A stretch of 54,361 nucleotides of DNA from Thermoplasmata archaeon (GCA_030037875.1 JASHPV010000183.1:1-54361); one strand, 5' to 3'. Positions 2,215 to 42,350 are shown, counted from the stretch's first letter. Notes: generated by a model not told the origin, from the sequence alone. Made by a program: numbers and translations.

Positions 2215-3356
2215 ACTGAAGCGCCGGGCGGCGAAAGTTCCAGGACTTTGAACGACTCGAATCCGAAAAGGAAACTCTTCTGCGCCAACCGAAGTTTCAC
2301 GGACTCCACGGAGTCGGCGCCGACTTCGAGCTGGGACCGGACGTCGTCTACCCCCCACGATACCAAGGCTTCCGAAAGGGGGCCGTAGTACGTTTCCTCG
2401 AGACCGGACGCTTTGGCCGCCCGCCGGACTCGAGTGAAATTTACCCAGGCACTGATGTCCGCGGTCCCGGGCCGCGACAGGGGATCGACCGGGCGATGGG
2501 CCCGGATCGCCTCCAGCGTGCCGCTCCTGCCCCGGGAGATGAGGGCCTCTTCCTCGACGCCGAAGTCGATGAGCACGGCCCGGCCACCGGCGAGATGATC
2601 CGCCAGCTCCCGAATCCAGGCCTCCATGGCGCCGGAAATCTCGAGCACGGTCCCCGGGGGAGCGCTCCCAGGAAGGTCCCCCGGCAGTTCGCTCGAGGCG
2701 GGCGCCCGCGTCTCGGCCTGGAGTGGGCCCTCCGCTGGAACGATGACTCCCACCTCCGACCAACCTCGGTCCGTCCTCACCAGCCGCCGAAAGGGGAACG
2801 CATCCAGCAGTTCGTTGGCGAGGAGTATCCCACGGAGTGGTTCCAGCGAACCTAGCGACGGAGCGAAGCGCCAAGGGACCTGTCCCGGCTCGGTCCGACC
2901 AAGGCGATTTTGGATGGCGGTCCGGAGCGAGGCCGACCGTTCGACCAACACGTACTCCCAACCCGCGAACTCGGTCGACCCACGAGGGAGCGCGGTCCGG
3001 ATGTCCGCGGCCAGAGTGCCGTCGCCGGGCCCCACTTCGACGATCGGAAATCGGGAGGGGGATCCTTCCGCGCGTCGAATCTGACGGAAGTGGGCGGCCA
3101 GCGTCGCGCCGAACAGGCCATGGACGTGAGCGGCGGTATAGAAGTCGCCTTCCCGCCCGAGTCGAGTCGACGCTCGGTCGTAGAACCCTCGACCGGGGTC
3201 GTAGAGAGAGATTTCCATGAAGCGGTCGAACGGTAGAAACCCGTCCCCATCCGCCGCGCCGCGTAGTCGGCGCCTAAGTACCGGGTCGACCGACCGGTCC
3301 CTGCCCGAGTCGGAAGGAATCGGGACGCGGGGCGACCCAGAATCGTCCGGCCCCAT
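2211..3356 (-). CDS. SAM-dependent methyltransferase, MidA/NDUFAF7 family
   Basis: FDRFM..LY.P..GFY, GDFYTA, VEVGPGDG, ANELLDAFP, IDFG, DISAWVNF. Confidence 0.9.
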   Translation of the reverse strand: MGPDDSGSPRVPIPSDSGRDRSVDPVLRRRLRGAADGDGFLPFDRFMEISLYDPGRGFYDRASTRLGREGDFYTAAHVHGLFGATLAAHFRQIRRAEGSPSRFPIVEVGPGDGTLAADIRTALPRGSTEFAGWEYVLVERSASLRTAIQNRLGRTEPGQVPWRFAPSLGSLEPLRGILLANELLDAFPFRRLVRTDRGWSEVGVIVPAEGPLQAETRAPASSELPGDLPGSAPPGTVLEISGAMEAWIRELADHLAGGRAVLIDFGVEEEALISRGRSGTLEAIRAHRPVDPLSRPGTADISAWVNFTRVRRAAKASGLEETYYGPLSEALVSWGVDDVRSQLEVGADSVESVKLRLAQKSFLFGFESFKVLELSPPGASV

Positions 3357-3386
3357 GGTCCACGTGGGGGGAACAGTCCAGCCCGG

Positions 3387-4166
3387 TCAGCCGATGTAGC
3401 CCAGGTCTTCCCGAGCCTGGGCGGGCGTTTCAGCTCCGCGAGTCGGAGTCTCGGCCTCGCGGAACTTCTGGGCGATCCGGTCGATCTCCTTCGCCTTGTG
3501 CTCCAGTTCGGTGAAGTCGATCGTGAGGTTGAGCACCTTGCTCAGGACGCGCAGTACCGCTTCCGCACTCCGGGGGTCGACGAAGTACCCCGAGGTCTCT
3601 CCCATCAAACACACGCCCTCCATCCCGTAGACGCGGCCAAGCCCCAGGAAAAGCCCACTCGCTCCGATGAGGCCCCCACCCGGGTCGGTGCGGGAGAAAA
3701 CGACGCCGAACTTCTTCATCGCTTCGACGCGGGCCTCGGAGGTCGCCGCTCCCAGCACGCGAGGACCCTCCACGAGGTGACCCTGAGCGAAGCCGGCAAG
3801 GGTGTAGACCTCGCGAACGCCCATTTGACTTGCCAAAGCGAGGACGCGATCGGTGAGTTCGTACTGACCTTCCGGGGTGATGCCCTGATAATCGCCCCCC
3901 AGGAGAATCAAATCGCGCTGAGCCGGGCCGGCGGCGCGCACGTACGAGAGATCATTGGAAACCAGGCGGATCAGGCCCTCCTCGCTGACGTAGACCTGGG
4001 GTGGGAAGAACTTGGAATGGATCCAGCCGAAGGAGGTGGCATTCAGCTTCTCCTTGAGGTAGTCGATCGCGAGCTTTCCGACGTTCCCCACGCCGGGTAG
4101 GCCCTCGATCAATACGGGGTCCTGGAGCTTCACCTGCTCGGTGATGCGGATGAGTACGTCCTCCAT
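3387..4166 (-). CDS. Proteasome assembly chaperone (PAC2) family protein
   Basis: IEGLPGVGNVGK, FPPQV, GASGL.LG, CLMGETSGY.VDP. Confidence 0.92.
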   Translation of the reverse strand: MEDVLIRITEQVKLQDPVLIEGLPGVGNVGKLAIDYLKEKLNATSFGWIHSKFFPPQVYVSEEGLIRLVSNDLSYVRAAGPAQRDLILLGGDYQGITPEGQYELTDRVLALASQMGVREVYTLAGFAQGHLVEGPRVLGAATSEARVEAMKKFGVVFSRTDPGGGLIGASGLFLGLGRVYGMEGVCLMGETSGYFVDPRSAEAVLRVLSKVLNLTIDFTELEHKAKEIDRIAQKFREAETPTRGAETPAQAREDLGYIG

Positions 4167-4246
4167 GGTGCCCTCTTTCGATGGAGCGGGGAACGATAGA
4201 TAACGGTTCGGTTACCGGAGGGTCCGGGAAGAGTGAGGTCTCCGAG

Positions 4247-4996
4247 TCAGGGAGCAACGTGGAAGCCCGTGTCATCGATGGTCAACCGACGGATCTGGGT
4301 GCGCTCGGGGTGATTCCGGAGCTTCCGGACCTCGAGCGTGTGTTCGAAAGTGGCCCCGTTGGGGTCGGAGCGCAAGGTGATGCCGAGGTCCGCGACGTCC
4401 TCGAGCATCGCACTGGACTTGTTGTCGAGCGACGCCTGCTGCACCGTTACCATCGCCTTGCCTCCCAGGAGTTGGGTCCGGGAGCGAATCTGCCGGACCA
4501 GGTTGACCACCTCGGACACTTCGAGCAGCTCGAGGAGAAAGTCGAGCGAGTCCAGGACCAAACGGAACGGCGCATCGAGGCCCGCGAGGTCGTTCAGGAA
4601 CCGGTTCACTAGACTGTAGGGTCCGACGGAGACCTCCGCCCGGCGAGCGTTCCGGAGGTCGTCCAACCGGAGCCCCCGTTCCCGGATCCTAGAGACCTCG
4701 AGCTGGGGCTCCAGTACGCGCTGGTAGTAATCATCGGAAAGGTTCCCGAAGCGGATCGGCTCCGGATCCCAGTGAAAGGAGCGGAACGCGTCCTGCGAAT
4801 CGATCGTACGTTCGGCGGTAGTGTAGTAGAACACGGGCGTCGAGCCGACCCCGGCTTGGGCGAACTGTTTCGCCAGGAGGTGGGAGCCGGACCCAGGCGT
4901 GCCGATAACCACGATGAGGCAGCCGGGAGGCAGGTAAGGAGAGAGGGCGGCGTCGATATCGGGAATGCCCATGAGCGGCTCGTCCCCGGTCGTCAC
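4247..4996 (-). CDS. RAD55/KaiC-like ATPase-fold protein with degenerate Walker A
   Basis: GIPDID, GTPGSGSH (Lys lost), LVLDSL Walker B, VRKLRN motif. Confidence 0.8.
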   Translation of the reverse strand: MTTGDEPLMGIPDIDAALSPYLPPGCLIVVIGTPGSGSHLLAKQFAQAGVGSTPVFYYTTAERTIDSQDAFRSFHWDPEPIRFGNLSDDYYQRVLEPQLEVSRIRERGLRLDDLRNARRAEVSVGPYSLVNRFLNDLAGLDAPFRLVLDSLDFLLELLEVSEVVNLVRQIRSRTQLLGGKAMVTVQQASLDNKSSAMLEDVADLGITLRSDPNGATFEHTLEVRKLRNHPERTQIRRLTIDDTGFHVAP

Positions 4997-5577
4997 GAGC
5001 TGCCCCCGAGCGTGAACGATTCGTCGACCACGAGGGCGAGGATCCGGTCGAGCTCGGTTCCCTCGGTCTCCGAGGTGGAGAACAGGACGGTGAGCACCGA
5101 TCGCGTCTTCAGGTTGTTCACGAGGATATGGAAGAACTCCGACAGGACCTCCGGGGCGTTGTGGACGGCCAGGGAATTCACCGAGTCAATGATGACCATG
5201 TTGCGCTGGCTAGGGTGCCTCCGGAGCAGGTACTCGATCCGAAGCATGATCCCCTCGAGCATGGTGGGGCTCTCCACGTACGAGGCGTTGGGCAGGGTGT
5301 CCTGGTAGCTCATCATCAGGTGAGAAATGGCGTCCACGAAGGAGAGCCGGGTGGAGGGGATGTCGAGCGCCTGCAGCAGACTCCAGACGAGCGAAGCGGG
5401 ATTCGTCACCGAGACGTAAATCGTGTGCGAGTTCGTCTCGCCCCCGAGGTCACGGACCGTGAGGCCGAGCGCCGCCAGATAATTGTCCGCGTAATCCCGC
5501 GCGCCCAGTCGGAGGGCCACCGTCCCACCGCTGGTGAACGACCGCAGCCGGTCGGCTATCTCGGATTCGCGGGCCAT
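4993..5577 (-). CDS. Inactive RecA/KaiC-fold protein (DUF7504/DUF835-like)
   Basis: IYVSVTNP, FVDAIS, VIIDSVNSL..HN; no Walker A; 4-nt overlap with the downstream gene. Confidence 0.7.
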   Translation of the reverse strand: MARESEIADRLRSFTSGGTVALRLGARDYADNYLAALGLTVRDLGGETNSHTIYVSVTNPASLVWSLLQALDIPSTRLSFVDAISHLMMSYQDTLPNASYVESPTMLEGIMLRIEYLLRRHPSQRNMVIIDSVNSLAVHNAPEVLSEFFHILVNNLKTRSVLTVLFSTSETEGTELDRILALVVDESFTLGGSS

Positions 5578-5581
5578 GAGC

Positions 5582-6370
5582 CTAGGCAGTCTCCAATCGG
5601 CCGCCTTTGAGGAACGGCGCCATGAGCAGGCCGATCGGCGTGAGCTCGATGACGTACTGGGCCCGCGAGTGAACGGTTCCCCGCATCTTGATGATCTGCA
5701 GCACGCGCAGCATGTCGCCCCGGCGACGAACGTTCGAGAGCATCACGACCCCGTCGACAATCGCTTCTTCCACCCCATACAGCGAGTGGACGCCCGGTAC
5801 CGCCCCCACCTCGGCGACCATCAACGACGTGGTGCCGAGCTCCGAGAACGCCTGGGCCAACTTGAGGATGAAATCTCGGGCCTTCTCCTCGCTCCGAACC
5901 CGGAACCCCACCGAGGTTAGGGAATCCACGACGACGCGCCGGGCCCCGCTCTCCCGGACAAGGTCTTGAATCGTGCGAACCAGGATGTCCACCTCACCGG
6001 GCTTGAGTTCCTCTCGGTTGAGACCGAGACGGTCGTAGACTATCGGGAGGTCCACGATGGTGACCAGGTTGTTGTTCACGAGATCGGTGTGGAAGAACTC
6101 GAAGGTGCTGAAGTTCTGCATGAGTTTGGCCGACGCTTCGGTCACAGAGATGAAGAGTCCCTTCTCGCCCCGTTCCGCGCCCCGGACGAGGAACTCGAGG
6201 CAGAGCGTCGTCTTGCCCGTGCCGACACCCCCGGCCACGAGCACCATGTTCGCGCGCGGGATTCCACCCCCGAGAATGTTGTCGAGGCCCTCGATACCAG
6301 TGACACATCGGTCCGCCAGTGCGTCTGTGGAGGGAGTCGTCGCCGGCGGGCCGGGGCGTGTTCCGCTCAC
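5582..6370 (-). CDS. Single-domain KaiC-like ATPase
   Basis: TGIEGLD..LGGG.P, Walker A GGVGTGKT, VVVDSL, IIKMRGT.HS. Start placed at GTG 6370, just downstream of an AT-rich TTTTAG element at ~6393-6398. Confidence 0.9.
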   Translation of the reverse strand: MSGTRPGPPATTPSTDALADRCVTGIEGLDNILGGGIPRANMVLVAGGVGTGKTTLCLEFLVRGAERGEKGLFISVTEASAKLMQNFSTFEFFHTDLVNNNLVTIVDLPIVYDRLGLNREELKPGEVDILVRTIQDLVRESGARRVVVDSLTSVGFRVRSEEKARDFILKLAQAFSELGTTSLMVAEVGAVPGVHSLYGVEEAIVDGVVMLSNVRRRGDMLRVLQIIKMRGTVHSRAQYVIELTPIGLLMAPFLKGGRLETA

Positions 6371-6577
6371 GAGGGCGGGAGCCGGGGCTATGCTAAAATG
6401 CTTACCGCCGTGGATTTCTCCGGTCCTGCTCGCCGGCCGTCCGGGACCCAAGCGGGCCCGGTGGTCCCGGCAAATCCCACGGGCTCCCGAGTGAACTGTA
6501 GCGGGTTTGGGCGACCGGTTCCGGATTCCGGGCGATTCGGAAGAATACGGTGGGAACGGATAACCGCCACCGCCGGG

Positions 6578-8116
6578 CTATGGGCTCGAAGGCGGCCCGC
6601 GGGGAGACGGGTTCCACATGAAGCATTGGGAACAGCGCAACGGCCCACCCGCACCCATGAGATCATGGAAGCAATCCGTGCAGAAGGGGCGACCGCAGTC
6701 CACGCATCCCGACAACCCCGAGGCGGTCCCGACCCGCCGGTTGCACCGTACGCACGCGACGGGGCCGGCCGCGGTACTCGTGCCGGTCTCCGGCGAACGG
6801 GGGAGACCCTGATTCGGAACCGGCTCAGAGGAAAGTAGGGCGGGGGCCGGGATTTCGCTGGGGGGAGCTTGCGTGTCGGTGAGCAACTCCGGTCGCCCCT
6901 CGGTGGAAACCACTGGTCCTAGAACGGTTTCAAGGGGTTCCGCCGAGGGTGAGGGCGGTTCCGGGGCCGTTCCTTTGTACTCGTCGGGCGCGGATTCCAC
7001 CGGGTCAGGGGCGGGGAGGCTCGAGGACGGAGGTATGTCGGAGATCACAGGTCGCGCCTCCCCTGGTACGTCTGGTGGCAAGTCAGATCGGCCGAGGCGT
7101 AGCGCGCGAGCGGACATCCGCGCCGCGAGTGAGCGAATGGGAGACTCGACTGGCGGAGCGGCGCTCACCGAGGTCGAGCCAAAGGGACTCGGTTCGGTGG
7201 TGCTCTCTGCGGCGACCGTGCTAGTCGGTCCGGTTGGCTTGAGAGAAACGGCTTGTATCAGGCGCTGCCACGACGGTCGGGTATCTCGGTTATCGGTCGG
7301 AACCTCCGGCGGCGGGGGATTCTCCTCCGGCGTCGCCTGACTAACGGACCCCACTTCGGGGGTGGGCGAAGCGTTCAACGGGAGATCTTCGACCGGCCTT
7401 TCAGACACTGAGATGGTGGGCTCCAACACCGGAGCGGAATCGGGTGATTCGACCACCACCGGCTGAACCGATTCGGGAATCGCGCCGGAGATTTCGGCCG
7501 GCATTGACGGAGCAGGGTGACTCTCCGAAGCAACAAGGTCGGGAGTGGTGGGGGTATTCGATTCGGCTACATCGTCAACGGGTTCCGGAGCGGAATCCCC
7601 TATCGCCCGAGGTGGCTCTTGGGATTGCGCACCAGGTCCTCCGATATCGCGCCAAGAGCCAGGGATGTCGATCGGGAGGGGTGCTCCAGCAGTATCGGTG
7701 GCTCCGGCGAGAGTTACTGGTGTCGATGGCTGGGATGTGAACGGCTCCGGCCCGATTCGCACATCGATCAGGGTGGGTGTCCTCGGGGGGAGCGCCACGT
7801 CGTGTGCGGCGACGGGCAGATCGTGGTTCAGGGGAGTGACTGGAGAGTAAGTCTGACGCGCCGGCAGGATGAAGATGCCCCCGGCAGAGATCAGGCCCAT
7901 CCCCGCGAAGAGCGGCCAGAGCGGAAAGTGGTGGTCGGCCCCCAAGGTCAACCTCAGAACCCCGGATGCTGCGGCCGCGCCGAGAAGAAGCACTGTGAGT
8001 GCGATCAAAGGAGCGCTCCCGACCACTTTCTCCTTCACCGATTCAGCCGCTCGAGGCGTCGGGTCGGGCGGGGCCGGAGCGTCCTGGAACGTAGCGCGGT
8101 GGAACTCAGCTGACAT
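6578..8116 (-). CDS. Membrane-anchored Pro/Ser/Glu-rich protein with C-terminal Cys8 zinc finger
   Basis: Two N-terminal hydrophobic helices, ~350 aa low-complexity linker, CxxC-x12-CxxC-x4-CxxC-x12-CxxC. Confidence 0.75.
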   Translation of the reverse strand: MSAEFHRATFQDAPAPPDPTPRAAESVKEKVVGSAPLIALTVLLLGAAAASGVLRLTLGADHHFPLWPLFAGMGLISAGGIFILPARQTYSPVTPLNHDLPVAAHDVALPPRTPTLIDVRIGPEPFTSQPSTPVTLAGATDTAGAPLPIDIPGSWRDIGGPGAQSQEPPRAIGDSAPEPVDDVAESNTPTTPDLVASESHPAPSMPAEISGAIPESVQPVVVESPDSAPVLEPTISVSERPVEDLPLNASPTPEVGSVSQATPEENPPPPEVPTDNRDTRPSWQRLIQAVSLKPTGPTSTVAAESTTEPSPFGSTSVSAAPPVESPIRSLAARMSARALRLGRSDLPPDVPGEARPVISDIPPSSSLPAPDPVESAPDEYKGTAPEPPSPSAEPLETVLGPVVSTEGRPELLTDTQAPPSEIPAPALLSSEPVPNQGLPRSPETGTSTAAGPVACVRCNRRVGTASGLSGCVDCGRPFCTDCFHDLMGAGGPLRCSQCFMWNPSPRGPPSSP

Positions 8117-8223
8117 CGGATTCCTTCGCCCGGCCCCGAACGTCGGCCAACGCCGCTAGTCGAACAAGCCCTGGAAGCGGTTGGTCAGGGGCTGGCACGG
8201 CACCCCTCGAGGATGGATTTCCC

Positions 8224-8781
8224 CTATGGGCAAGTCCCCACAGCGCTACACTGCAGCCAGATCGCTTGGACACTGTTGATGATCGGGCCTGTGCTGCCGG
8301 CTCCGACGTCGTAGTAGAAGGTGAACACGACATTGGCCCCTGGCGAGGTGGCTTGGGTCTCCACGTAGGTAGTAACGGTCGTGATCGCGCCGCCCGCGCC
8401 GGTCGAGATGGTGAAGCTCAGCTCCAACTCGGAACTGGCAGTAGCCCCGGCGGCCTCTGTGAACTTCCAGAACTGCCCGACGTCGCCGGCCGTGACCGCA
8501 TTGACTGCGTAGGATGCCGCGCCTGCCGTGAATACCTGAGGCGCAGCCGCGGTGCTTCCAGTGATACTGGTCGTTCCGGCGGGAACGGTGGCGACCCCGA
8601 CACTGGTCTCACTCCACCACGCGGGGTTGGCTGTTGCGCCATTGGACACGCCCCCGCCGTTCTCTCCACTCCCATTGGTCACGGTCAAACTCGCGGCCAC
8701 GGCATACCCGGCTCCAAAGACGACCATGAGCAGGGCGATGAACACATAGGCCGTCCGTCGGTCAATTCCAATCTTCGTCAA
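8224..8781 (-). CDS. Secreted beta-rich protein, paralog 1 (candidate filament subunit)
   Basis: Start TTG 8781 after GGAGTGA SD. Signal peptide RRTAYVFIALL...AVAA. Shares YVETQ, WxFxE and the C-terminal Cys pair with two neighbours. Confidence 0.75.
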   Translation of the reverse strand: MTKIGIDRRTAYVFIALLMVVFGAGYAVAASLTVTNGSGENGGGVSNGATANPAWWSETSVGVATVPAGTTSITGSTAAAPQVFTAGAASYAVNAVTAGDVGQFWKFTEAAGATASSELELSFTISTGAGGAITTVTTYVETQATSPGANVVFTFYYDVGAGSTGPIINSVQAIWLQCSAVGTCP

Positions 8782-8901
8782 GGTCTCACTCCACCCGGTG
8801 GATACGCGTATTCCCGGGTCCGTGTATAAGAAACCGCGGGTGCGCATAGCGCCATATTAATACGCATTGCGGTCCGCCGACTTCGGGAGATCCCCCGCGG
8901 A

Positions 8902-8925
8902 CCGCCCCCGGTCGTCCGGGGGCGG
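8902..8925. repeat. Perfect 10-bp inverted repeat (intergenic hairpin)
   Basis: CCGCCCCCGG-TCGT-CCGGGGGCGG. Confidence 0.55.
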
Positions 8926-9014
8926 GATCGCTACCGGTTTCCGGACGGACGAAGGCTGGGACGACGCCGGTCCCTGTTACGGGCCGGGTCCGGACACTTC
9001 CGGTGCGCAGAACG

Positions 9015-9629
9015 TTAGGGGCAAGTACCTACTGCGGTGCACTGCTGGGACACTTGCGTGAAGGCCTGGACTGCGACCGAAGCCGGGGCTCCGGTCCCGG
9101 CATCGTAGAAGAACTGGAACACAATCGGGTTCGCGGGCGCCGTGCCTTGCGTTTCCACATAGACCGTGACCGTGTTCGTTGCACCGGTGATGCCGTAGGC
9201 AATCGTGAAGATGATCTCAAGCTCCGTGTTCACCGGGGCCGCGGTTCCTTCGGTAAAGTTCCAGCGCACCGCGAGGTGACCGGCGGTAGCCGGGTTGATC
9301 CGGTAGCTTGCCGCAGCGTGAAGAACCGTGGGAAATCGGGCGGCCCCACTCACGAAGCCTGGCAACGGCGCGTGCATGGTGTCCGCGAACGTGCCGTCGA
9401 GAGTCCAATAGGTGAGACTGGTGCTTCCCTCGTATCCCCCGCTTGCCTGCTCAGTCGTCCCGGCGGTGATGACAAGAGCCGCGACCACCCCGCCCGCAGT
9501 CGCCAACACCACCAAAACCACTGCGAACAGCATCGAGATGCGAGGGAGGGCACGGTTTCTAGCACCCCGTGGGAGCGCTCGTCGCCGCAGCGGACCTTCC
9601 GGGACATCCGCCTCCTGTTCGGTCAGCAT
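9015..9629 (-). CDS. Secreted beta-rich protein, paralog 2
   Basis: Hydrophobic signal ending VVAA; WNFTE, YVETQ, QCTAVGTCP. Confidence 0.75.
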   Translation of the reverse strand: MLTEQEADVPEGPLRRRALPRGARNRALPRISMLFAVVLVVLATAGGVVAALVITAGTTEQASGGYEGSTSLTYWTLDGTFADTMHAPLPGFVSGAARFPTVLHAAASYRINPATAGHLAVRWNFTEGTAAPVNTELEIIFTIAYGITGATNTVTVYVETQGTAPANPIVFQFFYDAGTGAPASVAVQAFTQVSQQCTAVGTCP

Positions 9630-10180
9630 GTGCCCGCTCCTCCCGAACAGAGCTGGGAGACCTCTTCCTCGGAGTTGAGGGAAATCGCGAGAGCCGATCC
9701 GGAATCCCAGTAGAACGTGAACTCCCAGTCGGGGGTGGGACCGGCCGCCTGCGTCTCGACGTACGCCACGATCGTGGTGATCGTGGGGCCAGCCCCAGTG
9801 GATACGGTGAAACTGAGCATCAATTCTCGATTCGCGTTAAATCCGTTGTCGGTCTCGTTGAATATCCACACGAGCGCCGTGTCACCGCCGGTGCCGGCAT
9901 TGATCATGTAGTCCGCGCTGGCCGAGGGTAGGGAGGTGGGACTCACCGCGCTAGTGCTGATCAGCGCCGGGGGCGTAGCGGGTGTGCTCAGGTTGTCGAT
10001 GGCCCCAATCTGATCCCAGTACTGCAGCCACGCGCCCGTATGATGGGACCCGTCGCCATTCTCGGCCGGGCCGGCGGTTACGGTAAGGCCCACCGCGGTG
10101 GCGAGTCCGGCGCCAAAAGCTATGGCAATCGCTACGACGACATAGGCCAAGCGGATTTTTTTCCGAATCCAGGGGAACAT
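9623..10180 (-). CDS. Secreted beta-rich protein, paralog 3
   Basis: Start ATG 10180 just downstream of minus-strand CTATAT; RKKIRLAYVVVAIA signal; WIFNE, YVETQ, CSGGAGTC. Confidence 0.75.
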   Translation of the reverse strand: MFPWIRKKIRLAYVVVAIAIAFGAGLATAVGLTVTAGPAENGDGSHHTGAWLQYWDQIGAIDNLSTPATPPALISTSAVSPTSLPSASADYMINAGTGGDTALVWIFNETDNGFNANRELMLSFTVSTGAGPTITTIVAYVETQAAGPTPDWEFTFYWDSGSALAISLNSEEEVSQLCSGGAGTC

Positions 10181-10371
10181 CCGTCCTTCGTGGTCTCGCC
10201 ATATAGACTCCCGGGGAGGCGTATTTCTGCGTATCGGCACAACGTCGCCCCCGTGGAGCTCGGACTATCCACGGGTGAAGTCTTCGGCGACCTGCACCAG
10301 AACCGCGACCCCAGGGCATAAAACGCCCCCAGCTTCCCGGACGTACGAAAGGTGGGGCGACCCGGCTCGGA

Positions 10372-10914
10372 ATGACCGTCTATATTGGACTCCTTCGAGC
10401 CGTGAACGTGGGCGGCTCCGGTAAGATCGACATGATCGCCCTTGCGGCGCTGTTGAGCCGTATGGGGCTTGGGGACGTGCACACCGTCCTCCAGTCCGGC
10501 AACGTCGTGTTCCGCACCGATGTCACGGAAGTGACCCCGCTGGAAGTTGCCATCGAGCGCGCACTTTCCGAGCAGCTGGGGCTCAGGACCGACGTTTTCG
10601 TTCGCACGCTCCCGGAATGGCGCTCCATCCTGAGACAGAACCCGTTTCCCCTGGAAGCGAAGACAGACCCGGCCCACCTGGTCGTTACGCTCCTGAAACG
10701 GGCTCCCGAACCGAGCGAGTGGAGAGACCTGGAACGATCCATTCCGGGCCGAGAGCGGATTCAAGGGGCCGGCCGCCACGCGTACATCGTTTACCCGGAC
10801 GGAATCGGCACTTCGAAACTCACTGCGGCTGTGATCGAGCGACAATTGTCGACGCGAAGCACGAGCCGAAACTGGAACACGGTACAGAGACTGGATCAAC
10901 TCGCTTCGTCCTGA
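10372..10914 (+). CDS. DUF1697 domain protein
   Basis: LLRAVNVGG...I.M, V.T.LQSGNVVF, NPFP, T.RNWNTV. Confidence 0.9.
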   Translation: MTVYIGLLRAVNVGGSGKIDMIALAALLSRMGLGDVHTVLQSGNVVFRTDVTEVTPLEVAIERALSEQLGLRTDVFVRTLPEWRSILRQNPFPLEAKTDPAHLVVTLLKRAPEPSEWRDLERSIPGRERIQGAGRHAYIVYPDGIGTSKLTAAVIERQLSTRSTSRNWNTVQRLDQLASS

Positions 10915-13295
10915 GATCGCTCGGTCGCCGGGTTTCCAATACTTCCCCCGGTCGCGTCGGACCCGGGAATGCCCCGCTTGGCCGGCAACATTTCGGCGAG
11001 ACGTTTCCGCGACAGTACCCAGAAGCTGCCGGCGTCGTCCTTACCGTTCCGGATCAGCGCGCCCGCCGAGGCCAGGAAGCGACCCCCGCTCCGTACCCAG
11101 CTCTCCGCGGTCCGAGGATCGACGGACCATCTCGCCCGCAGGTCCGGGAGATGCACGGTCAACTCGGCCCGGTCTCCCGAGCGTTCGACCCATTCGGTCA
11201 AGGCTTCCATCACGGGCGTCGCAGCGTCCGGCCGGGATGGGCCGTTGGGAATCGGACTTGTAGCCCGTTCGGATTTGTCGTGCACGATGGGGGTGGGTTG
11301 GTCGCCCGCCCCAACATCCGTCGGCACGATAGGCCGGAACGAGTTCGGATCCCGCTGTCCCTGGACCGGGCGAGACAACTGGACCCAGTGCGTTTCCGCC
11401 CCTTTGTCGATCAGGATGGCCGCCTCGCCCCGAGGTAATCGGAGGAGGCGCTCGGCCGTGACCTGCGGCACCCACCGGGAGACATCTCTCGCGTCGAACG
11501 GATCTCCCCGAAACAGCACCACGTCAGCCGAGTTGGTCGTAACAGCGTCCCGGACCATCTCTGGAAGGGAGCGCAGCGATTGCGTAACGCTCCAGACGTG
11601 GAGATTGAATCGCCGCCCCAGACGCAACATTTCCGCCACACCTTCGTGGGCGTACCATTGCGCCTCGTCCAGCACGAGAAACACTTTCGTTTGTCTGGTG
11701 CGCACGAGGGCCTCGTTCCATACGAGCGCGAGCACGACCGCGAGCAGGTACCGGGCCGCGGGTTCACCGACTTGGGGCGCGTCGCCGGAAATCACGGTGA
11801 TCCGGCCGGGGGTCACCGCAGCGCCGACGGACCAAGTCGGGGACCGGGCGTCCAGCATCTGCGTCAAGACCGGGCTCCGAGTTATCTCACCCAGTAGCCG
11901 CCGGGCACCGTCGCCGTCTTGGGGCGCGCGTTCAATCCGGCGTCGGATCTCGTCGACCGCTTCTCGAGCGCCGTCCGGTACGGTGCGCCGAGGAAAACCT
12001 TCGGGCGACAGTAACCGCTCGGCTAACGCAAGCGACGATCCGGGCCATTGGCCCGCGGCGCGCAGCGCTTGAAGCAACATCTCCTCGAGCCGCGGACCCC
12101 AAAAGGAGGACTCCGCGTACTGACCTGCCCGGACCCGGCGAAGCGCCGCGACGATATCGCCGAGCAACCGTTCACGGTGTGCCGCACCGTCGCTCCGTTG
12201 GGAAGCGACCTGGTGCAGGAGGTTCAGCGTCAGACCCGGCACGGCCGGCGAAACCCAGGAAACTTGGGGGCTCCTCGCATCCGGAACGCCCGACAGAAAC
12301 TCTCTCGCGGTGTCACCCACCGGATCGAACAGGATCATCGACCCCCACTGGGCGGCTTGCCAGGCGAGCCGGACGATGAGCGAGCTCTTTCCCATGCCCG
12401 TCTCTCCCAACACTAGCAAATGCCGGCCTTGTTCGGACTCGACCGGTAGGCCGACGAAGGAACCCCCCAGGTCTCGCCCAACCCAAAGCCGGGCTCGATC
12501 GGAGCCGTGGGCCGCAGTCGCGGCAATCGGGGTGGGCGGGGGAAACAATCCGACCAGCTCGGCCTCGGTCAGAACGGCATCTCTGCCTAGTCTGGCGAGA
12601 GGGGAGCCGGCGGACCGACAGGCGAACCGGTTTCCGCCTTCAAGATGGGATGTGGCCTCGAGCAGGTGGGCTACCTGGGAACCCGCATCGTCAGCCTTGC
12701 GCCGGGCATCGATCAAAATCCTTCCGGAGACCCTCCACCGCAACCCGGTGCGGCGGGCTTCCTCACGGTCTTTGAGGATGCGTTCTGGAAGTGTCCGTAT
12801 GCGCTCGTCCTTCGCGAGCGGCTCGCCCCATTCGGGGAGCCATTTCTCTCGCGAGGGGAAGCCAAGGTCTGGAACCAGTTCCCACTCCACGGCGACACCG
12901 GCTCGGCTCATGCGGAGTTGCCCCAGCACCGTCTCGGACCATGGGGGCTCATCCGGCGGGGTAGGAAACGGCTGTTCGGCCGCTCCGCCTTGCGTCACTC
13001 TGAACTCGGGTCGCGACTGGGCGAGCCCGTGCCAATCGCCCGCGGCATGCCATTGTCCCATCTCATAGGCGGAGGAGAGTCCGAAATGCAACCATCGTTC
13101 CCCCACTGGGGACGAGACCCCCAGTACCACTCCCCCCGAGTCGCCGGAGGACCATCGCATTCGAAGAGGGATTCCGAGCCCATGAGCCGCGCGAAGAGCC
13201 CGACGCAGGCGACCGACGAATTGTCGGGTTTGATCGGGAGAGACCAAGGCGGAGACCGGCCGGTACCCGTAGCTCCGCCACCCCCGCTGCAGCAC
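10896..13295 (-). CDS. HerA/VirB4/VirD4-superfamily P-loop ATPase
   Basis: HLLVLGETGMGKS Walker A, FDPVGD, LVLDEAQ Walker B, GRRFNL....TQ motif; possible C-terminal winged helix. Confidence 0.85.
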   Translation of the reverse strand: MLQRGWRSYGYRPVSALVSPDQTRQFVGRLRRALRAAHGLGIPLRMRWSSGDSGGVVLGVSSPVGERWLHFGLSSAYEMGQWHAAGDWHGLAQSRPEFRVTQGGAAEQPFPTPPDEPPWSETVLGQLRMSRAGVAVEWELVPDLGFPSREKWLPEWGEPLAKDERIRTLPERILKDREEARRTGLRWRVSGRILIDARRKADDAGSQVAHLLEATSHLEGGNRFACRSAGSPLARLGRDAVLTEAELVGLFPPPTPIAATAAHGSDRARLWVGRDLGGSFVGLPVESEQGRHLLVLGETGMGKSSLIVRLAWQAAQWGSMILFDPVGDTAREFLSGVPDARSPQVSWVSPAVPGLTLNLLHQVASQRSDGAAHRERLLGDIVAALRRVRAGQYAESSFWGPRLEEMLLQALRAAGQWPGSSLALAERLLSPEGFPRRTVPDGAREAVDEIRRRIERAPQDGDGARRLLGEITRSPVLTQMLDARSPTWSVGAAVTPGRITVISGDAPQVGEPAARYLLAVVLALVWNEALVRTRQTKVFLVLDEAQWYAHEGVAEMLRLGRRFNLHVWSVTQSLRSLPEMVRDAVTTNSADVVLFRGDPFDARDVSRWVPQVTAERLLRLPRGEAAILIDKGAETHWVQLSRPVQGQRDPNSFRPIVPTDVGAGDQPTPIVHDKSERATSPIPNGPSRPDAATPVMEALTEWVERSGDRAELTVHLPDLRARWSVDPRTAESWVRSGGRFLASAGALIRNGKDDAGSFWVLSRKRLAEMLPAKRGIPGSDATGGSIGNPATERSQDEAS

Positions 13296-27933: not shown

Positions 27934-30801
27934 GTGTGGTGTAAAGGCACCGCCGCTGAACCCTCACCCACAAACCGGAAGGCAGGTGCCCGGTGCGGAC
28001 GCGGGGCGCCATCAACACGAAGGGCAAACACCATTCCTGTCGTCGCGCTCACCCTCCTCGCGGTCGTCGCGGTTGCCGTCGTGCCTCCGCTCCAAACGGT
28101 CGCGGCAGCGAGCGGGGCGAGCGGTCATCGGACGCCCCCGTCGCAGCCCACGCCACCCCCGAGTTTCAACTGCGGGAGCTATGGCCAATCCCTCGACGTC
28201 TTTTCCCCGAACCCCGCCGCGGGCATCGCCGGAACACGGTTCACACTCCAAGGTTCGGGCTACTACAACGCCCCGTCCCCGGGAAATTTCACCATCTGGA
28301 TGGCCAGTTACACCGGCGGCGATCTTCTCTACTTCACGAAGGTAACGGCCGCCGAATACGAACGGGAGTGGCTGAAGGATCAACCCTTCTGGGTGAACGT
28401 CACCGTACCCGGAGAGGAATCCGGGAGCTCGCTTCCCCCGGGAGCCTACGAGTTCTGGTCGGTTAACGACTCCACGACGGATACGGGCTGTGCCAACTAC
28501 CCGTTCACGTTGACTGCTACCCCCCCGGCGGCGCTAGGTTGTGTGTCCTGGAACGCGACACTCACCCTCCTCTCTCCGATTCCGGCCACCGGAGGACCGG
28601 AAACTCCCGTCGTCCTGAACGGATCGGGCTTCTCCGAGACGGGGGCTACCGGGATTTACTGGGCCAACACGACCGGGTCAGCCTATCAGCTGGTCGGGTC
28701 TGCCGGCGCGGAGCCCCCAGGCGACTTTTTCGAGCTCACCGTCGACGCCCCTTCCGGTTACGCAGCGGGAACCTATGTCTTCTGGGGGGTCGATGAGGAT
28801 TCCGATTGCGCGGGCGTGGTGTTCGTACTCACCGCCGCACCGGCCCTCACCTTGTCCGCCACGTCGGGTCCCCCCGGCAGTGTCGTAACCGGAATGGGGA
28901 CCGGCTTTGCATCCGATTCGACGGTGACCTTCACCTTCGACGGCGCCCCGGCCCCCTCGGACTGTGCGACGAACAGCACCGGCGACTTCCCGGGCACCAC
29001 AGGCCTGCCGTGTACCTTCACCGTGCCACCGGTTGCGTATGGAGACGACGGGGGAGACAACGTGGCCGCCACCGACGCGTCCTCGCATTCGGCCTCGGCT
29101 TCGTTCACGGTGTTGCCTGAGATCACTCTGACCCCCAACATGGGGCCGATGGGGGGTGAATTCACCGTCACGGGCATCGGGTTCAGCCCGTCGCCGGATA
29201 CCGCCACTATCACCTTCGATGGTAATCTGATAGACCCGATCACCGACCTTCCCGCGTGCGATAACGAGACATCCCTGATCGATCTCAACGCGACCGGGGG
29301 ATTCACTTGCACGTTCACTGTACCGCCGTTTGCCACGTTCGGAGCCAACGAAGTTCAGGGAATGGATACGTCATCGGGCGCGCTGACGGCCGCGGTGACG
29401 TTCACAGTCCCGCCTGAGCTCTCGATCACGAGCTCGCCCACGGTGGGCCCCATCGGGACTCCGGTAACGGCGACGGGCGCGGGATGGACCCCCGGGGACT
29501 CGATCGCGCTCTGGGTCGCTCCGGTCAGCGACGAGTCTCAGATCACCGTGCTGAATTGTGTGGGCGCGCCCTCCGGCGAACCGACCGTCGCCTCGACGGG
29601 CGGGTTCACCTGCGATTTCGACTTCCCGTCGGTAGCCCCCGGGGCGTACACCGTCGCCGCGTCGGATGCGTCCCATGTTACCTACCCGCCCACCGTCATC
29701 TATTCGGGGAACACGTTCTACCTTGTCGGCCCCCTAATCACCGTGAATCCGAGCGCGGGTCCGATCGGATCCACTTTCACGGTGACTGGTACCGGTTTCG
29801 AGCCCTTCCCCTCTACTGCGATCGTCAGCTTTGATGGCCAACAGATCACACCGACGGGCGGTTCGGACTGCTCGTTCAACGATGTGCTGATTACGCTGAA
29901 CACGACCGGAGGATTCGTGTGCACCTTCTCGGTGCCAGAATCCGCGGCGCTCGGGGCCCACGAGGTGCGGGGCGACGACACCGGCACGGGCCTTCTCACC
30001 CCGGAGCAAACATTCATGGTCACGCTGAGTTTCGCGACGTTGTCACTTTCGCCGGATCAGGGTCCCGTCGGGACCGTGGTGTACCTGGCGGGGAGCGGGT
30101 ACGCTTCATTGGCATTGTTCGATTATTGTTTCGAGGGAAGCGGGGCGCCGGCGGCCTGCGGCAGCTCCCGGGAGTTTCTGACCACCCCTGGGGGGGACAT
30201 TCCATCGGGGACGGCCATTCAGGTGCCCTCAGGTGAAAACGCTCAGGTGGTGGTGTCCGCCCTCACGACCGGTACGCTGGAGGCCTCCGCGGCCTTCGCG
30301 TTGACCATCCCGTATGTCGAGACGGTGAGCTCGACCACGGGCACTTCGGGGTCCGCGACCTTCACCGTCAGCGGGCTGGCGGACAGCACGGCGTACTATG
30401 TCTATCTCGATACGGTACAAGGGGTGGCCTCAGTCACCTCCTACAACCCCCTGGGTACATGCACTTCCTCCGCGACCGGTGTGCTGACCGCCTGTACGGT
30501 CCCCATTCCGCACGGGCTCAGCGCGGGAACGTACTACGTAGATCTGTTCCAGGACCCTTCGCCGCCGCCTTTCATCTTCTCGGTGTTCAATTTCACAATC
30601 GCCCCCGCATCCTCGGCCGGGAACCATTTCTTCCTGTTTGGACTCACGACCCTCGAGCTCCTGATCATCGGGCTCGCCGTGATTCTGATCGCGGTACTGG
30701 CGGTAGGGATAACGATCGCACGACGACGAAGGCCGGCCCCCAGACCCCCAGCGCGTACGACGGGAACCGCTCCGAAGAGTCCTCCCAAATCGTCCTCTTA
30801 A
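27934..30801 (+). CDS. Cell-surface protein with ~8 Ig-like (IPT/TIG-like) repeats and C-terminal membrane anchor
   Basis: Signal peptide; repeated 'xTxxP..GP.G...T..G.GF' starts; paired Cys; many N-x-S/T sequons; TM helix followed by RRRR. Confidence 0.85.
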   Translation: MWCKGTAAEPSPTNRKAGARCGRGAPSTRRANTIPVVALTLLAVVAVAVVPPLQTVAAASGASGHRTPPSQPTPPPSFNCGSYGQSLDVFSPNPAAGIAGTRFTLQGSGYYNAPSPGNFTIWMASYTGGDLLYFTKVTAAEYEREWLKDQPFWVNVTVPGEESGSSLPPGAYEFWSVNDSTTDTGCANYPFTLTATPPAALGCVSWNATLTLLSPIPATGGPETPVVLNGSGFSETGATGIYWANTTGSAYQLVGSAGAEPPGDFFELTVDAPSGYAAGTYVFWGVDEDSDCAGVVFVLTAAPALTLSATSGPPGSVVTGMGTGFASDSTVTFTFDGAPAPSDCATNSTGDFPGTTGLPCTFTVPPVAYGDDGGDNVAATDASSHSASASFTVLPEITLTPNMGPMGGEFTVTGIGFSPSPDTATITFDGNLIDPITDLPACDNETSLIDLNATGGFTCTFTVPPFATFGANEVQGMDTSSGALTAAVTFTVPPELSITSSPTVGPIGTPVTATGAGWTPGDSIALWVAPVSDESQITVLNCVGAPSGEPTVASTGGFTCDFDFPSVAPGAYTVAASDASHVTYPPTVIYSGNTFYLVGPLITVNPSAGPIGSTFTVTGTGFEPFPSTAIVSFDGQQITPTGGSDCSFNDVLITLNTTGGFVCTFSVPESAALGAHEVRGDDTGTGLLTPEQTFMVTLSFATLSLSPDQGPVGTVVYLAGSGYASLALFDYCFEGSGAPAACGSSREFLTTPGGDIPSGTAIQVPSGENAQVVVSALTTGTLEASAAFALTIPYVETVSSTTGTSGSATFTVSGLADSTAYYVYLDTVQGVASVTSYNPLGTCTSSATGVLTACTVPIPHGLSAGTYYVDLFQDPSPPPFIFSVFNFTIAPASSAGNHFFLFGLTTLELLIIGLAVILIAVLAVGITIARRRRPAPRPPARTTGTAPKSPPKSSS

Positions 30802-37636: not shown

Positions 37637-40600
37637 TCAAGTGGGAGCGACGGGGAAGGCGACCTTCAACATCTCAACCTCTCCCGGGGTCAAAAGTCGA
37701 GGGTTGACCGGCACCCACACCGCGGTCCCGGAGGCCTGGGCTCGCACGTGCAGCTCCCGGAGCAGTTTCAACACGGGCGCCAGCGTGTTGACCGTGACGA
37801 GGTACTCGAAGCCTTCGAGCAGCACCGCACTGACGTGGCCCTCTCCCAGCGCACTAACGAAGAGCGTCTCGAGCGCCGCGACGTCGCTTGGCCGCACCGA
37901 GTTCTGACGCCCGACATTGGAGAGCCAGATCACGGTGATGTCCCGAGTTCCGATGCGCCGGCGGAGCCGGTCCGGAAACTCTCGCGTGACGCAAAGACCC
38001 CGGCGGCCGACCGACACGGCATCGAGGAATCGGCTCCAGGCCGCGTCCGTGGTGTCCTCGACGAGGAGTTCGATGCCTTGATGGAGCAAGGACGTCGGCG
38101 CAGGTGCCGCTTCGGCCACGTCCGCGGACACGGGCGGTTTCCACGGGGGAAGCGGAACGGCTTCGGGTCGGGGAGCCGGCGGAGCCACTGCGCGGATCAC
38201 GGGAGGGGTCGCTGCGGGACCCGCGCGCGGGAGGGCGGGAGTGGAGACACTCGGCAGAGTCGGGACCGAGGCACTGGGAGACGCCGAGGAGATCGGTTCG
38301 GGCACCGTCGGTTCTGGGAGAGACTCCGGGGGCGCAGCCTCCGGTTCGGGAGCGGGCTCCGGCTCGGGAGGCTCAACGCGCGGGGGAGGCCAGACCCAGA
38401 TACGGTCCGGGACCGCTCCTCCGAAGTGGCGGACCACCTCCCGGGCGAGATACGGTCCGAATCCGGGCACGGTGACCAGCTTCTCGTACGGCGCGTGGGA
38501 AAGGGACTCGAAATCTGTGAATCCCGCGTCCCAGGCGGCGGCGAGCTTGGTGACACCCAAGTAGGGTGCGCCGACGGCCTGGTCGAGTTGCTCCAGCGTA
38601 CCGTGGAGGGTCGTCTCCCGGTTCCGTACCTCCTCACTCAAGAAATCCGGACCCTCGGACTCCACCGGTTCGAAGCGTACGGCCTGGCGCCCCCGTCGGC
38701 CAAGATGCCGGGAAACGCGGGCCTTGCGCCGTCCCACCGGTCGTGGGAGGCCCGGTACCCAGATCCGCCATCGCGTGCCGACCGCGGTCCGGCCATTCGT
38801 GGTCTCTCCAGGGATGAACCGCGTCCCGCTCGACACCGCCTCAAAGCGAGGTACGCGAAGAGACTGTGCAATCGCCACGGCATGGCTTCGGAGCTCCTCC
38901 TCGAGCGCCGGAGGCGCCTCGACCCAAACCTCCGTGATGTTCGAACCCGCCGGCGCGGAGGTCAGTCGTCGACGCGCCGAACGCACTACGCGGTACGCGT
39001 CGGGACCTAGCCCTAACATTAGGTCGAGCGCGGCGGAGCTGGTTCCTTGGGGGAGCTTGAGATACAGCTCTCCCTGGGGCGCCGGCAGCACCATCATCCC
39101 GGGAGGGAGCGCGTCGATCAGTTCGACCATCGACGGGAGCAGCTGTACGGGGCTCGCGCCGAGCACAACGCTGAGCGTCTGATTCCGCAGCGCCTCCTTG
39201 ACCCTCTTCCCGGGCATCTGAGAGACCAACGTGGCGATCCGCCCGGCGCTCGCCCGATAGACGCGCTGGAGCTCGGCCAGGTTCGGTTCGACGCGGATCT
39301 GGCGGCCTTCCCACGGGCGGGCCGGTGAGGCGATCTCGATGCTCTCGGTTGGAAGCACGCGCGTGAGAACGGGCAGCAGGGCCTGGAGTTCCGCGGCGAC
39401 CGCCTCGTCGCGCGCATTGACCACGACGCTGGCCCACCGAATCGAACGCGGCAACGACAGCCGGTGACGGGCCCGCTCGACGGCCAGGGCGATCGGAACG
39501 AGTCGGTCCAGCAGCTTCTCGGAGGCCGGATCGACGAGACTCTGTCGGACCGGGGCAAGCGGCGCCTCGAACAGGCTCCGGGCGTCGTCCCGAAGGGAAC
39601 GGTCGATGGCCTCCATGGTGAAGGGAGCGAAGGGGGCCCACAGCTGTGCGAGCCCAGACACCACGTAGACCAGCACTCGTTCAGCGGCCGTTTTGCCGGG
39701 GCTTTGAGCGGCCTCATCGAGGCGGCTTCGAGCGATCAGCAGGTACTGCTCCCGGAGGTCGTGGTCGGCGAACCGGGTGATGCGGTCGAGCGTTTGGGGG
39801 AACCGCCCCGCGGCCAATCCCGCCAGCGCGTCGGCCCGAAACCGTTCGAAGCGGGACACGAAGGCCCGGTCCTCTTCGGGCAACGAATCTCGGACCCGGG
39901 CGAGGGACTGGTCCCCGAGCGGAAGGCCGTCCCGAGCGAGGCTTCCGGAGAGCTGGTACGCCACTCGCCAAAATCTCCGTAGGTGCCGCACATCCTCGGC
40001 CACTACGGACGCGAGGGGGGAGGCAGCCCGGCGTCGGGTGGCCATCCGAACGAGAGCGCAGCGGACCGCGTCGACGGGAGCGGCCGGGTCCACGCGAGCC
40101 GAGGCCTCGTCCACGGAACCGGTCGGCACGAGGATGAGGCGAGTGTCGGCCGGACGCGCGGACGCCGCGAACTGGCCGACGAGGTGGGTCAACAGCAGTG
40201 GCCCCCTCCGCTGTTCGGGCAATAGCAGTCCGACCCCATTGTCCGTGGGAAATGGGTTCATGCGGGCCCATCGGTAGAGCGCCTCATTGAACACCGGAAG
40301 CAGACGCCGCCGTACTTCGACTCGAACGCCTCCACAGGAGCATTTGGGACCCGTCCCCGCCGGTGCGAGCCGTGAGCAGCTTCCACACTCTTGGAGGGCC
40401 GGGTACGCGGGGTCCTCGGTGGTCCGTGCGTCGGTCGCCGGCCAAGGCACCACCTCCGACGCCAAGGGTAGCGCCTCCCCGGGCAGAAGCTGCTTGAAAA
40501 GGTACAACGTTTCGGCGTCGATCCGGTCCGGTTCCAGCCTCCACGCCCGGCCGGGCCTCCAGAAGAGACCGGTCCCGCAGTCCCCGCACCGCGGAACTCC

Positions 40601-42269: not shown

Positions 42270-42350
42270 GCGGACCGTCCATCATTTTCGATGCGGGGTG
42301 CCTAGCCGTCCGGCAAGGGTCCGCGTCGCTTGGGGGATCGAGGGTTCGGC

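Follow-up and report, generated by a model that had tools for sequence, protein, structure and literature searches.

Seven consecutive open reading frames (ORFs) on the minus strand, at positions 4247-10180 of the window (the whole 54,361-nucleotide stretch JASHPV010000183.1 from the Thermoplasmata archaeon genome GCA_030037875.1), are most probably, at a rough probability of 0.6, two unrelated units that lie side by side, namely a KaiC operon that occurs throughout the class and a lineage-specific cassette of four genes for predicted envelope proteins. The operon (the KaiC trio) encodes an intact KaiC-family ATPase (KaiC_A), a RecA-fold protein without a P-loop (RecA-dead, the middle gene) and a KaiC-like protein whose Walker A motif is degenerate (KaiC_C), and the cassette encodes three paralogous exported proteins (par1, par2, and par3) and a proline-rich protein with a two-transmembrane (2-TM) hairpin and a zinc finger of eight cysteines (Cys8). 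The original prediction, made from the sequence alone, had described the seven genes in these terms, and ORFs, Pfam matches and motifs agree with its descriptions; it had also joined all seven into one surface-filament and signaling system, which the gene neighborhoods reported below contradict. The window has a G+C content of 63-69%, the names of the homologues indicate an uncultured Thermoplasmata archaeon as its host, and the public sequencing runs that hold the stretch are peat and soil metagenomes, with no RNA data set among those listed.

For a comparison at the family level, the locus of the middle gene was taken from 14 genomes of the window's family (f1), seven of the same genus and seven from six other genera. 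The genomes of relatives are metagenome-assembled genomes, in which absence means that a gene was not found in those searched, and their genes were called with a simple GC3-based caller of our own making. None of the 14 loci has a paralog or a Cys8 gene at the trio. In same-genus relatives only 60-330 nt separate the start of the DUF1697 gene from a promoter block in front of KaiC_A, compared with about 4 kb in the window. Within the promoter block, the TATA-like sequence ATTTTAGCATA precedes a conserved GTG by 19-29 nt; this GTG is most likely the start codon of KaiC_A rather than the TTG at 6451. Apart from a few substitutions, the block of the window is shared with four genomes of the genus in which the cassette is missing, in support of the earlier suggestion that a separate promoter serves the trio.

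Positions 3300-11500 of the window were aligned with Logan contigs from four sequencing runs, which belong to four studies. One contig (X2 record 8) spans 6185-11500, X6 contigs span 4587-6789 and 6847-11500, and an X5 contig covers 9973-10915 with 2-4% differences. Because contigs of other samples bridge both junctions, the insertion is real and not an assembly chimera. One X6 contig fits the window up to position 6403, the exact end of the promoter block, and then diverges. An empty-site form was not seen in the four runs, where no contig joins across the cassette, and neither flanking repeats nor a tRNA or an integrase gene were found as scars at the window site. The gap between the gene for a HerA-like ATPase and the KaiC_A promoter seems to be a recurrent insertion site, as DUF1697 occupies it in six of the seven same-genus loci, about 270 extra bases in G320, and the 4-kb cassette in the window species. 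DUF1697 lies at 10372-10914 on the plus strand of the window and the extra bases of G320 at L074:10936-11221. The cassette would have entered this intergenic site just upstream of the trio promoter, and in the window species only.

The converse comparison gave the same picture. At E<=1e-3, eight other paralog loci, six of them with three tandem copies, contain no match to KaiC, PAC2, methyltransferase, DUF1697 or the HerA-like protein, and the flanking sequence retrieved around the six triple clusters is free of KaiC genes. In five genomes (G065, G090, G154, G194, and G248) the middle gene of the trio is located on another contig than the paralog cluster. Paralogs were found in 17/301 genomes of the class, all of family f1 (16/37 there), and no triple cluster was found in any of the eight other genomes of the genus, where the best match is 4.9e-15. 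The middle gene occurs in 183/251 class genomes, being missing mainly from two families (0/27 each), and in 38/41 genomes of family f1; the unpublished genome G098 contributes one genome to each of the tallies 17/301, 38/41, and 183/251 and one match to the hairpin model described below, and no conclusion hinges on it. The two units are considered independent because the 14 trio loci are devoid of the cassette, the paralog loci are devoid of KaiC, and the distributions differ (17/301 vs 183/251). The neighborhood analysis that had been proposed as a check on the single system thus detected no synteny of paralogs and trio in relatives, a refuting result as far as synteny is concerned, and the caveat that the linkage could be positional only was right, since it exists in one species only.

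Table 1. Features of the window discussed in the text (positions are counted from the first nucleotide of the window).
Feature	Position	Strand	Remarks
Inserted cassette, about 4 kb	6404-10371		between KaiC_A promoter block and DUF1697 start; right edge not mapped to the base
par1, exported or anchored beta-sandwich paralog (predicted)	9623-10180	-	185 aa, ATG at 10180
par2, paralog	9015-9629	-	204 aa; ATG overlaps par1 stop (ATGCTGA)
par3, best-conserved paralog	8224-8781	-	185 aa, TTG start
2-TM hairpin protein with Pro-rich spacer and C-terminal Cys8 (RING/FYVE/B-box-like) zinc finger	6578-8116	-	512 aa
Trio promoter block	6379-6403	-	TATA-like ATTTTAGCATA at 6389-6399
KaiC_A, intact single-domain KaiC-family ATPase	5582-6370	-	262 aa from GTG at 6370
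RecA-fold protein without P-loop (middle gene, RecA-dead)	4993-5577	-	194 aa
KaiC_C, KaiC-like, Walker A without Lys	4247-4996	-	249 aa
HerA/FtsK-like ATPase	10896-13295	-	799 aa; upstream neighbor of trio within family f1 only

Within the cassette, the adjacency of the two kinds of genes is conserved. A Cys8 gene lies beside a paralog in six of six genomes (the window, G154, G090, G248, G260, and G035), in five of them downstream on the same strand, and in G260 divergently, after the second of three paralogs. Using a hidden Markov model (HMM) of the hairpin region, further neighbors of paralogs were detected in G272 (without the finger), G010 (5.6e-10), G098 (1.2e-7), and G316 (8.8e-7), and weaker matches in G147, G320, G266, and G302. 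The same model found none beside the paralogs of G194, G065, G188, G133, G161, and G175, two of these loci ending at contig edges. From the conserved adjacency it is concluded that paralogs and 2-TM partner belong together, as had been proposed earlier, and the four proteins are best seen as working together in an envelope module separate from the trio. At other sites the cassette is flanked by unrelated metabolic genes (FAA hydrolase, RibD_C, FTCD, NUDIX, AHSA1, and TrkA), and no cassette neighborhood contains an ATPase, peptidase or usher gene. In G090 and G248 the syntenic neighborhood of the cassette also contains, at a distance of about 6-7 kb, an ORF of 720-825 amino acids (aa) with a Pilin_N N-terminus (L036:15957-18374; L037:2519-4687).

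The three paralogs of the window are 40-43% identical over their whole ORFs and 35-41% with trimmed starts, and in each of them a basic N-terminus and a hydrophobic helix are followed by a Gly-rich linker and a beta-sandwich, with C-x5-C at the C-terminus. The ORF of par3 extends to 8847, and the TTG start was taken for it, homologues having about 185 aa. In an alignment of 49 family members six positions are invariant, including the two C-terminal cysteines, and YVETQ and the GTCP end are nearly so. The N-termini of 172 members show a conserved RR (R in 134/172) followed by about 15 hydrophobic residues, and then G (150/172), x, a small residue, x, A/G (162/172), A/S/T, and an alternation hydrophobic-T-hydrophobic-T. 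The G-x-A-x-A pattern would fit a signal peptidase I site and small-xxx-small helix packing equally well. Since TatC is encoded in the genome, export by the Tat pathway is possible. In the AlphaFold2 (AF2) model of par3, which has a mean pLDDT of 81, residues 8-31 form a helix that is joined to a seven-stranded sandwich by a Gly-rich linker without ordered structure. A TATA-like TCTATAT is located about 21-27 nt 5' of the par1 ATG, par1 looks leaderless, and par3 has a TATA-like box of its own, TATTAATAT at 8854-8862. The paralog in position 3 adjoins the zinc-finger gene in all clusters and is the slowest evolving, with positions 1 and 2 evolving fast, and position-3 genes cluster across genomes with weak support (74/73).

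Among 1.84 billion representatives searched, the paralog family comprises 148 representative clusters at E<=1e-3, nearly all of 165-215 aa, with about a dozen shorter and apparently partial. Metagenome contig scans with a single-protein query and with a seven-row alignment query gave no relative. The three paralogs match nothing in Pfam (E<=0.01), NCBIfam or PHROGs; for the four cassette proteins together, all Pfam and NCBIfam scores stay below cut-off, and neither PHROGs nor PADLOC gives a match. Foldseek of the paralog model against pdb returned generic beta-sandwich matches, none at E<=0.001, and in a wide VIA scan the best Z score, to generic Ig/FN3 domains, was 5.6; the 50 matches listed include no subunit of thread, TasA or AbpA filaments. 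No ESM Atlas cluster was found at 0.9 or above, the nearest being viral hypothetical proteins at 0.88-0.89. An identity as type IV pilins was rejected, there being no Pilin_N match and no motif of the ..SPVI.. type in the sequences, and so was a relationship to the pilins linked to trios elsewhere, as hhalign against 30 such pilins gave a probability of 0.12%. An additional pair of internal cysteines and a QQCS..TCP terminus are found in remoter members of the family (L041:10003-11232; L042:7961-9232; L004:356-943), which are arranged as tandem pairs in G272 and G188; the window's genome has one copy, on a different contig.

In the TM hairpin of the partner protein P-[LV]-W is conserved and the second helix is rich in Gly; the Pro-rich spacer measures about 350 aa in the window and from about 90 to about 350 aa across homologues. 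Its finger, CxxC-x11-CxxC-x4-CxxC-x13-CxxC, is identically spaced in the window, G154, G090, G248, G260, and G035, and cysteines C11, C14, C27, C30, C35, C38, C51, and C54 are invariant in these six orthologues. Eight invariant cysteines in four CxxC pairs are shared with the cross-brace binuclear zinc fingers (RING, FYVE, B-box, PHD; Prok-RING_1, Prok-RING_2), from which the present domain differs in its C-terminal position on an archaeal 2-TM protein and in reaching neither a family cut-off nor a Foldseek E<=0.001. Weak Pfam matches, all below cut-off, were obtained to zf-B_box in six of six and to FYVE in four of six orthologues; the best scores were 20 bits for FYVE (gathering cut-off 27.8) and 19.8 bits for zf-C3HC4_3 (cut-off 27), and phmmer against PDB sequences gave a best E of 0.17. 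The finger was modeled by AF2 with a pLDDT of 75.5, and Foldseek of this model gave PHD, RING and FYVE domains in the top rows, with a best E of 0.34 and thus none significant. The same Cys8 finger is also found on a second family of 2-TM proteins that have a conserved middle part and occur several per genome, singly among housekeeping genes (G000:C59:398-556, C168:2285-2461, C175:7696-7866; L110 and L111). ORF lists of three neighborhoods of this second family (G194:C30, G065:C30, and G188:C20) contain no adjacent exported paralogs, no Pfam scan having been made for these.

As regards topology, binding and function of the cassette proteins, we infer an arrangement in which the paralogs would be exported in an N-in/C-out orientation by Sec, or possibly by Tat in view of the conserved RR, and would display outside the cell a beta-sandwich that ends in a disulfide loop. 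The hairpin protein would expose only about 10 residues to the outside, and its Pro-rich spacer and binuclear zinc finger would be cytoplasmic. The paralogs would keep their N-terminal helix as an anchor, and this helix could pack on the Gly-rich hairpin through its small-xxx-small motif, an idea based on the G-x3-A/G pattern of the paralog helix (the 150/172 and 162/172 given above) and on the Gly-rich second helix of the hairpin. In this way a complex on the cell surface would be connected, by means of the zinc finger, to a partner in the cytoplasm. A predicted complex of full-length par3 with hairpin residues 1-110 gave ipSAE values of 0.00 and 0.00, without controls, which speaks neither for nor against binding.

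Such an anchored complex on a hairpin adaptor is tentatively preferred, at somewhat less than even odds, because the conserved parts of the partner are intramembrane and cytoplasmic. The alternative that the cassette by itself makes a non-type-IV, ATPase-independent surface filament without KaiC is possible but doubtful. There, signal peptidase I would cut after the small-x-small residues, and the new N-terminus, hydrophobic-T-hydrophobic-T plus the Gly-rich linker, would serve as donor strand for the next sandwich, with par3 as major subunit, par1 and par2 as minor subunits or cap, and the hairpin protein as base or nucleator. The tripartite signal-peptide layout of the N-terminus with conserved residues right after the putative site, the beta-sandwich fold, the combination of a conserved paralog, which has a TATA-like box to itself, with two fast-evolving ones, and the lack of ATPase, peptidase and usher genes in all cassette neighborhoods are consistent with it. 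However, the AF2 monomer is a complete seven-stranded sandwich with the N-terminal segment undocked, the candidate donor strand has only about five residues, no solved subunit stands out in the VIA and Foldseek searches, and the location of the partner's conserved parts fits poorly with subunits that leave the membrane.

The filament alternative also has a precedent in its logic. According to PMC9715654, the thread locus of Sulfolobus acidocaldarius (Saci_0404-0408) encodes a subunit with a Sec/signal peptidase I signal that AF2 models as a helix, conserved first residues and a paralogous cap candidate, together with co-occurring genes of unknown role and no chaperone or usher. Shared with the cassette would be a small exported beta-sandwich subunit with a putative helical Sec/signal peptidase I-type signal and conserved residues past the putative cleavage site, a paralog alongside, extra genes of unknown role and the lack of ATPase, chaperone and usher. 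The cassette differs in having no detected sequence or fold match to the thread, in its three paralogs instead of two and in its TM-hairpin/zinc-finger partner. A second likeness concerns the N-terminal TM helix with an external beta-sandwich, as found also for PDB 5tug at a VIA Z of 4.1, although this value lies within the generic Ig-like range and the cassette has neither archaellum context nor sequence similarity to that protein pair. The pair in question, ArlF/ArlG (FlaF/FlaG), consists of N-terminally anchored beta-sandwich proteins of the pseudo-periplasm.

Of the trio proteins, KaiC_A matches the Pfam family KaiC (PF06745, gathering cut-off 26.6 bits) with 189.3 bits (9e-56) and, in the PDB, KaiC (6.8e-54) and PH0186 (5.8e-35). 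The Walker A motif, GxxxxGK[ST], reads GGVGTGKT in the window and G[GS]xGTGKTT in all 15 orthologues. With 25.2 bits the middle protein falls just short of the cut-off and for this reason is filed only as a relative of the RecA/KaiC fold; GK[ST] is missing from all 15 of its orthologues. KaiC_C scores 55 bits (9.7e-15) and has GTPGSGSH at this place, with PGSG[STIL]x and no Lys in 15/15 orthologues. PADLOC returned nothing for the two degenerate proteins. The NCBIfam equivalog model of ArlH gave 36.7 bits with KaiC_A and 37.8 bits with KaiC_C, against a cut-off of 215, and no archaellum family was found among the called genes of the window. Below threshold, the middle protein matches Elong_Iki1 (Elp5) at 0.0024 and KaiC_A matches PAXNEB (Elp4) at 0.0017, which hints at a likeness to hetero-oligomeric RecA-fold rings. 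Such rings with inactive subunits are formed by eukaryotic Elp4/5/6 and by Rad51-paralog complexes, and the trio resembles them in joining the genes of one active and two degenerate paralogs of the RecA/KaiC fold; in the present case the Elongator matches stay below cut-off, and a heteromer would be a prediction.

In distant loci the order KaiC_A, RecA-dead, KaiC_C was found in 8/10 cases, the other two showing the first two genes only. Pilin genes were searched for at 30 trio loci with a class III motif of our own; in 18 loci, corresponding to 15/26 other families, such genes follow immediately downstream in the same orientation. These predicted pilins have about 140-165 aa after the motif and come as one to three genes in tandem, and all motif matches in the 30 loci fall at this position. 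Pfam Pilin_N (PF07790) backs only a subset, in G040, G047, G135, G144, G226, and G233. Motif pilins are absent from 12 of the 30 loci, representing 11 families, among which are the two other families of the window's order and one locus at a contig edge. In families f17 and f24 and one f27 locus the pilins follow directly after the second gene and no KaiC_C was detected. Examples of the arrangement of trio and pilins among loci L100-L136 are L102:6275-10517 and L118:4256-8351. In the window genome and its family the trio is adjoined by neither pilin nor archaellum genes; G000 and four relatives do have Pilin_N genes, but away from the trio.

As it is usually followed by genes for small type IV pilins, the trio would be a pilus-linked ATPase. 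It is an old three-gene KaiC operon of the whole class, with its own promoter of leaderless type, one active ATPase and two degenerate paralogs. Much like ArlH, its products may form a hetero-oligomeric ATPase of the KaiC type that assists or regulates a pilus-like structure, and the adjacent pilins have apparently been lost in the window's order. The earlier tie between KaiC and surface structures holds insofar as trios are linked to filament genes, but these are ordinary type IV pilins in 15/26 families. KaiC-family arCOGs are reported to be associated with type IV pilus (T4P) loci (Makarova et al. 2016, PMC4858521), and the arrangement of trio and pilins may already be contained in its arCOG neighborhood tables. 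With the ArlH/FlaH-type ATPases located by T4P or archaellum genes (arCOG01171, 01174, and 01175; PMC4858521), KaiC_A shares the single-domain KaiC ATPase and the trio shares its position by pilins; one difference is the fixed trio of one active and two degenerate proteins.

Several points weigh against the division into two units and against an anchored complex. The insertion occurred exactly at an operon associated with surface structures and in the same orientation, so that transcriptional read-through or action of the trio in trans may take place, and the trio is present in nearly all cassette-bearing genomes, for which reason co-occurrence cannot separate the units. In G194, G065, and G188 the paralogs have no adjoining hairpin gene, the G065 locus ending at a contig edge beside an IS110 transposase. 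The pattern attributed to helix packing equally fits a signal peptidase I site that would release the paralogs from the membrane, the predicted pilins come from our own motif with partial Pfam backing, and all these proteins are known from sequence and predicted models alone. A functional tie between cassette and trio is nonetheless judged unlikely. The single system of the original prediction, in which the paralogs, a Cys8 transducer and the trio would form one signaling system and the trio would now serve the cassette after the loss of pilins, is improbable to about the same degree. It gains from the link of the trio to filament subunits in 15/26 other families, from the known T4P neighborhood of KaiC-family ATPases (PMC4858521), from an order (f1, f2, and f3) without pilins beside the trio, from the position of the cassette, which in strains of three or more studies immediately precedes the trio in the same orientation, and from a presumably cytoplasmic zinc finger without an assigned partner. 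It loses by a linkage that exists in one species and is absent from 7/7 same-genus loci, from 7/7 loci of other genera and from the surroundings of six other triple clusters. Moreover, the trio keeps its own promoter, DUF1697 (in the genus) and extra DNA (in G320) entered the same intergenic site, hence a recurrent insertion site, the paralogs are unrelated to trio-linked pilins (hhalign probability 0.12%), and the adjacency was picked post hoc from a very large scan. Rated lower still is a combination of the two ideas, an undescribed ATPase-independent archaeal surface filament or filament-like array of beta-sandwich subunits exported by Sec or Tat, which would be rooted on the hairpin protein with its cytoplasmic RING-like finger and captured, in this lineage, by a KaiC trio that has lost its adjacent pilins, a KaiC heteromer then controlling it through the zinc finger. 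Least probable of all is that the cassette is mobile or viral cargo, for example an envelope-modifying or exclusion module: its patchy occurrence within one family at differing genomic sites, the IS110 transposase beside the G065 copy and the viral hypothetical proteins as nearest ESM Atlas clusters, though at 0.88-0.89 and thus below 0.9, point that way, but the window site shows no integrase, tRNA or flanking repeats, the four proteins have no PHROGs match, the GC content of the cassette is like that of the surrounding window, and three genomes of genus g2 have the cassette at one common syntenic site, which suggests vertical descent there.

The upstream neighbor of the trio is specific to the window's family. 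The gene for the HerA-like ATPase adjoins the trio in 14/14 loci of family f1 and in 0/10 distant loci, and the order in the 14 loci is HerA-like, (DUF1697), KaiC_A, RecA-dead, KaiC_C, followed in 12 of them by PAC2 and Methyltransf_28 genes. The HerA-like gene, PAC2 and the methyltransferase are thus neighbors of the trio only inside family f1, and DUF1697, while present in 6/7 same-genus loci, was found in 0/7 loci of other genera. The HerA-like protein matches DUF87 with 28.2 bits (cut-off 23.2), over residues 289-350 only, and the PADLOC model mad8 (1.2e-20), though it is a fixed neighbor of the trio in family f1. Elsewhere in the window, a 1349-aa ORF at 37637-41686 on the minus strand combines a tRNA-ligase anticodon-binding domain (2.1e-12) with a C-terminal DUF835 (2.8e-17), an unusual fusion; DUF835 is presumably a KaiC-associated domain. 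A 955-aa ORF with a TIG domain (27934-30801, plus strand) and a 1494-aa ORF without Pfam match (42330-46814, plus strand) may encode surface proteins.

The proposed system of filament and KaiC is thus most probably not one system but an example of how a run of genes on the same strand can mislead. What remains of it are two subjects of separate interest. The class-wide trio, usually located immediately in front of type IV pilin genes, offers a concrete and testable handle on KaiC-like ATPases at archaeal pili. The cassette represents a narrow, unannotated four-gene envelope module of uncultured peat and soil Thermoplasmata, whose pairing of predicted exported Ig-like proteins with a membrane protein carrying a RING-like finger is unusual in archaea.

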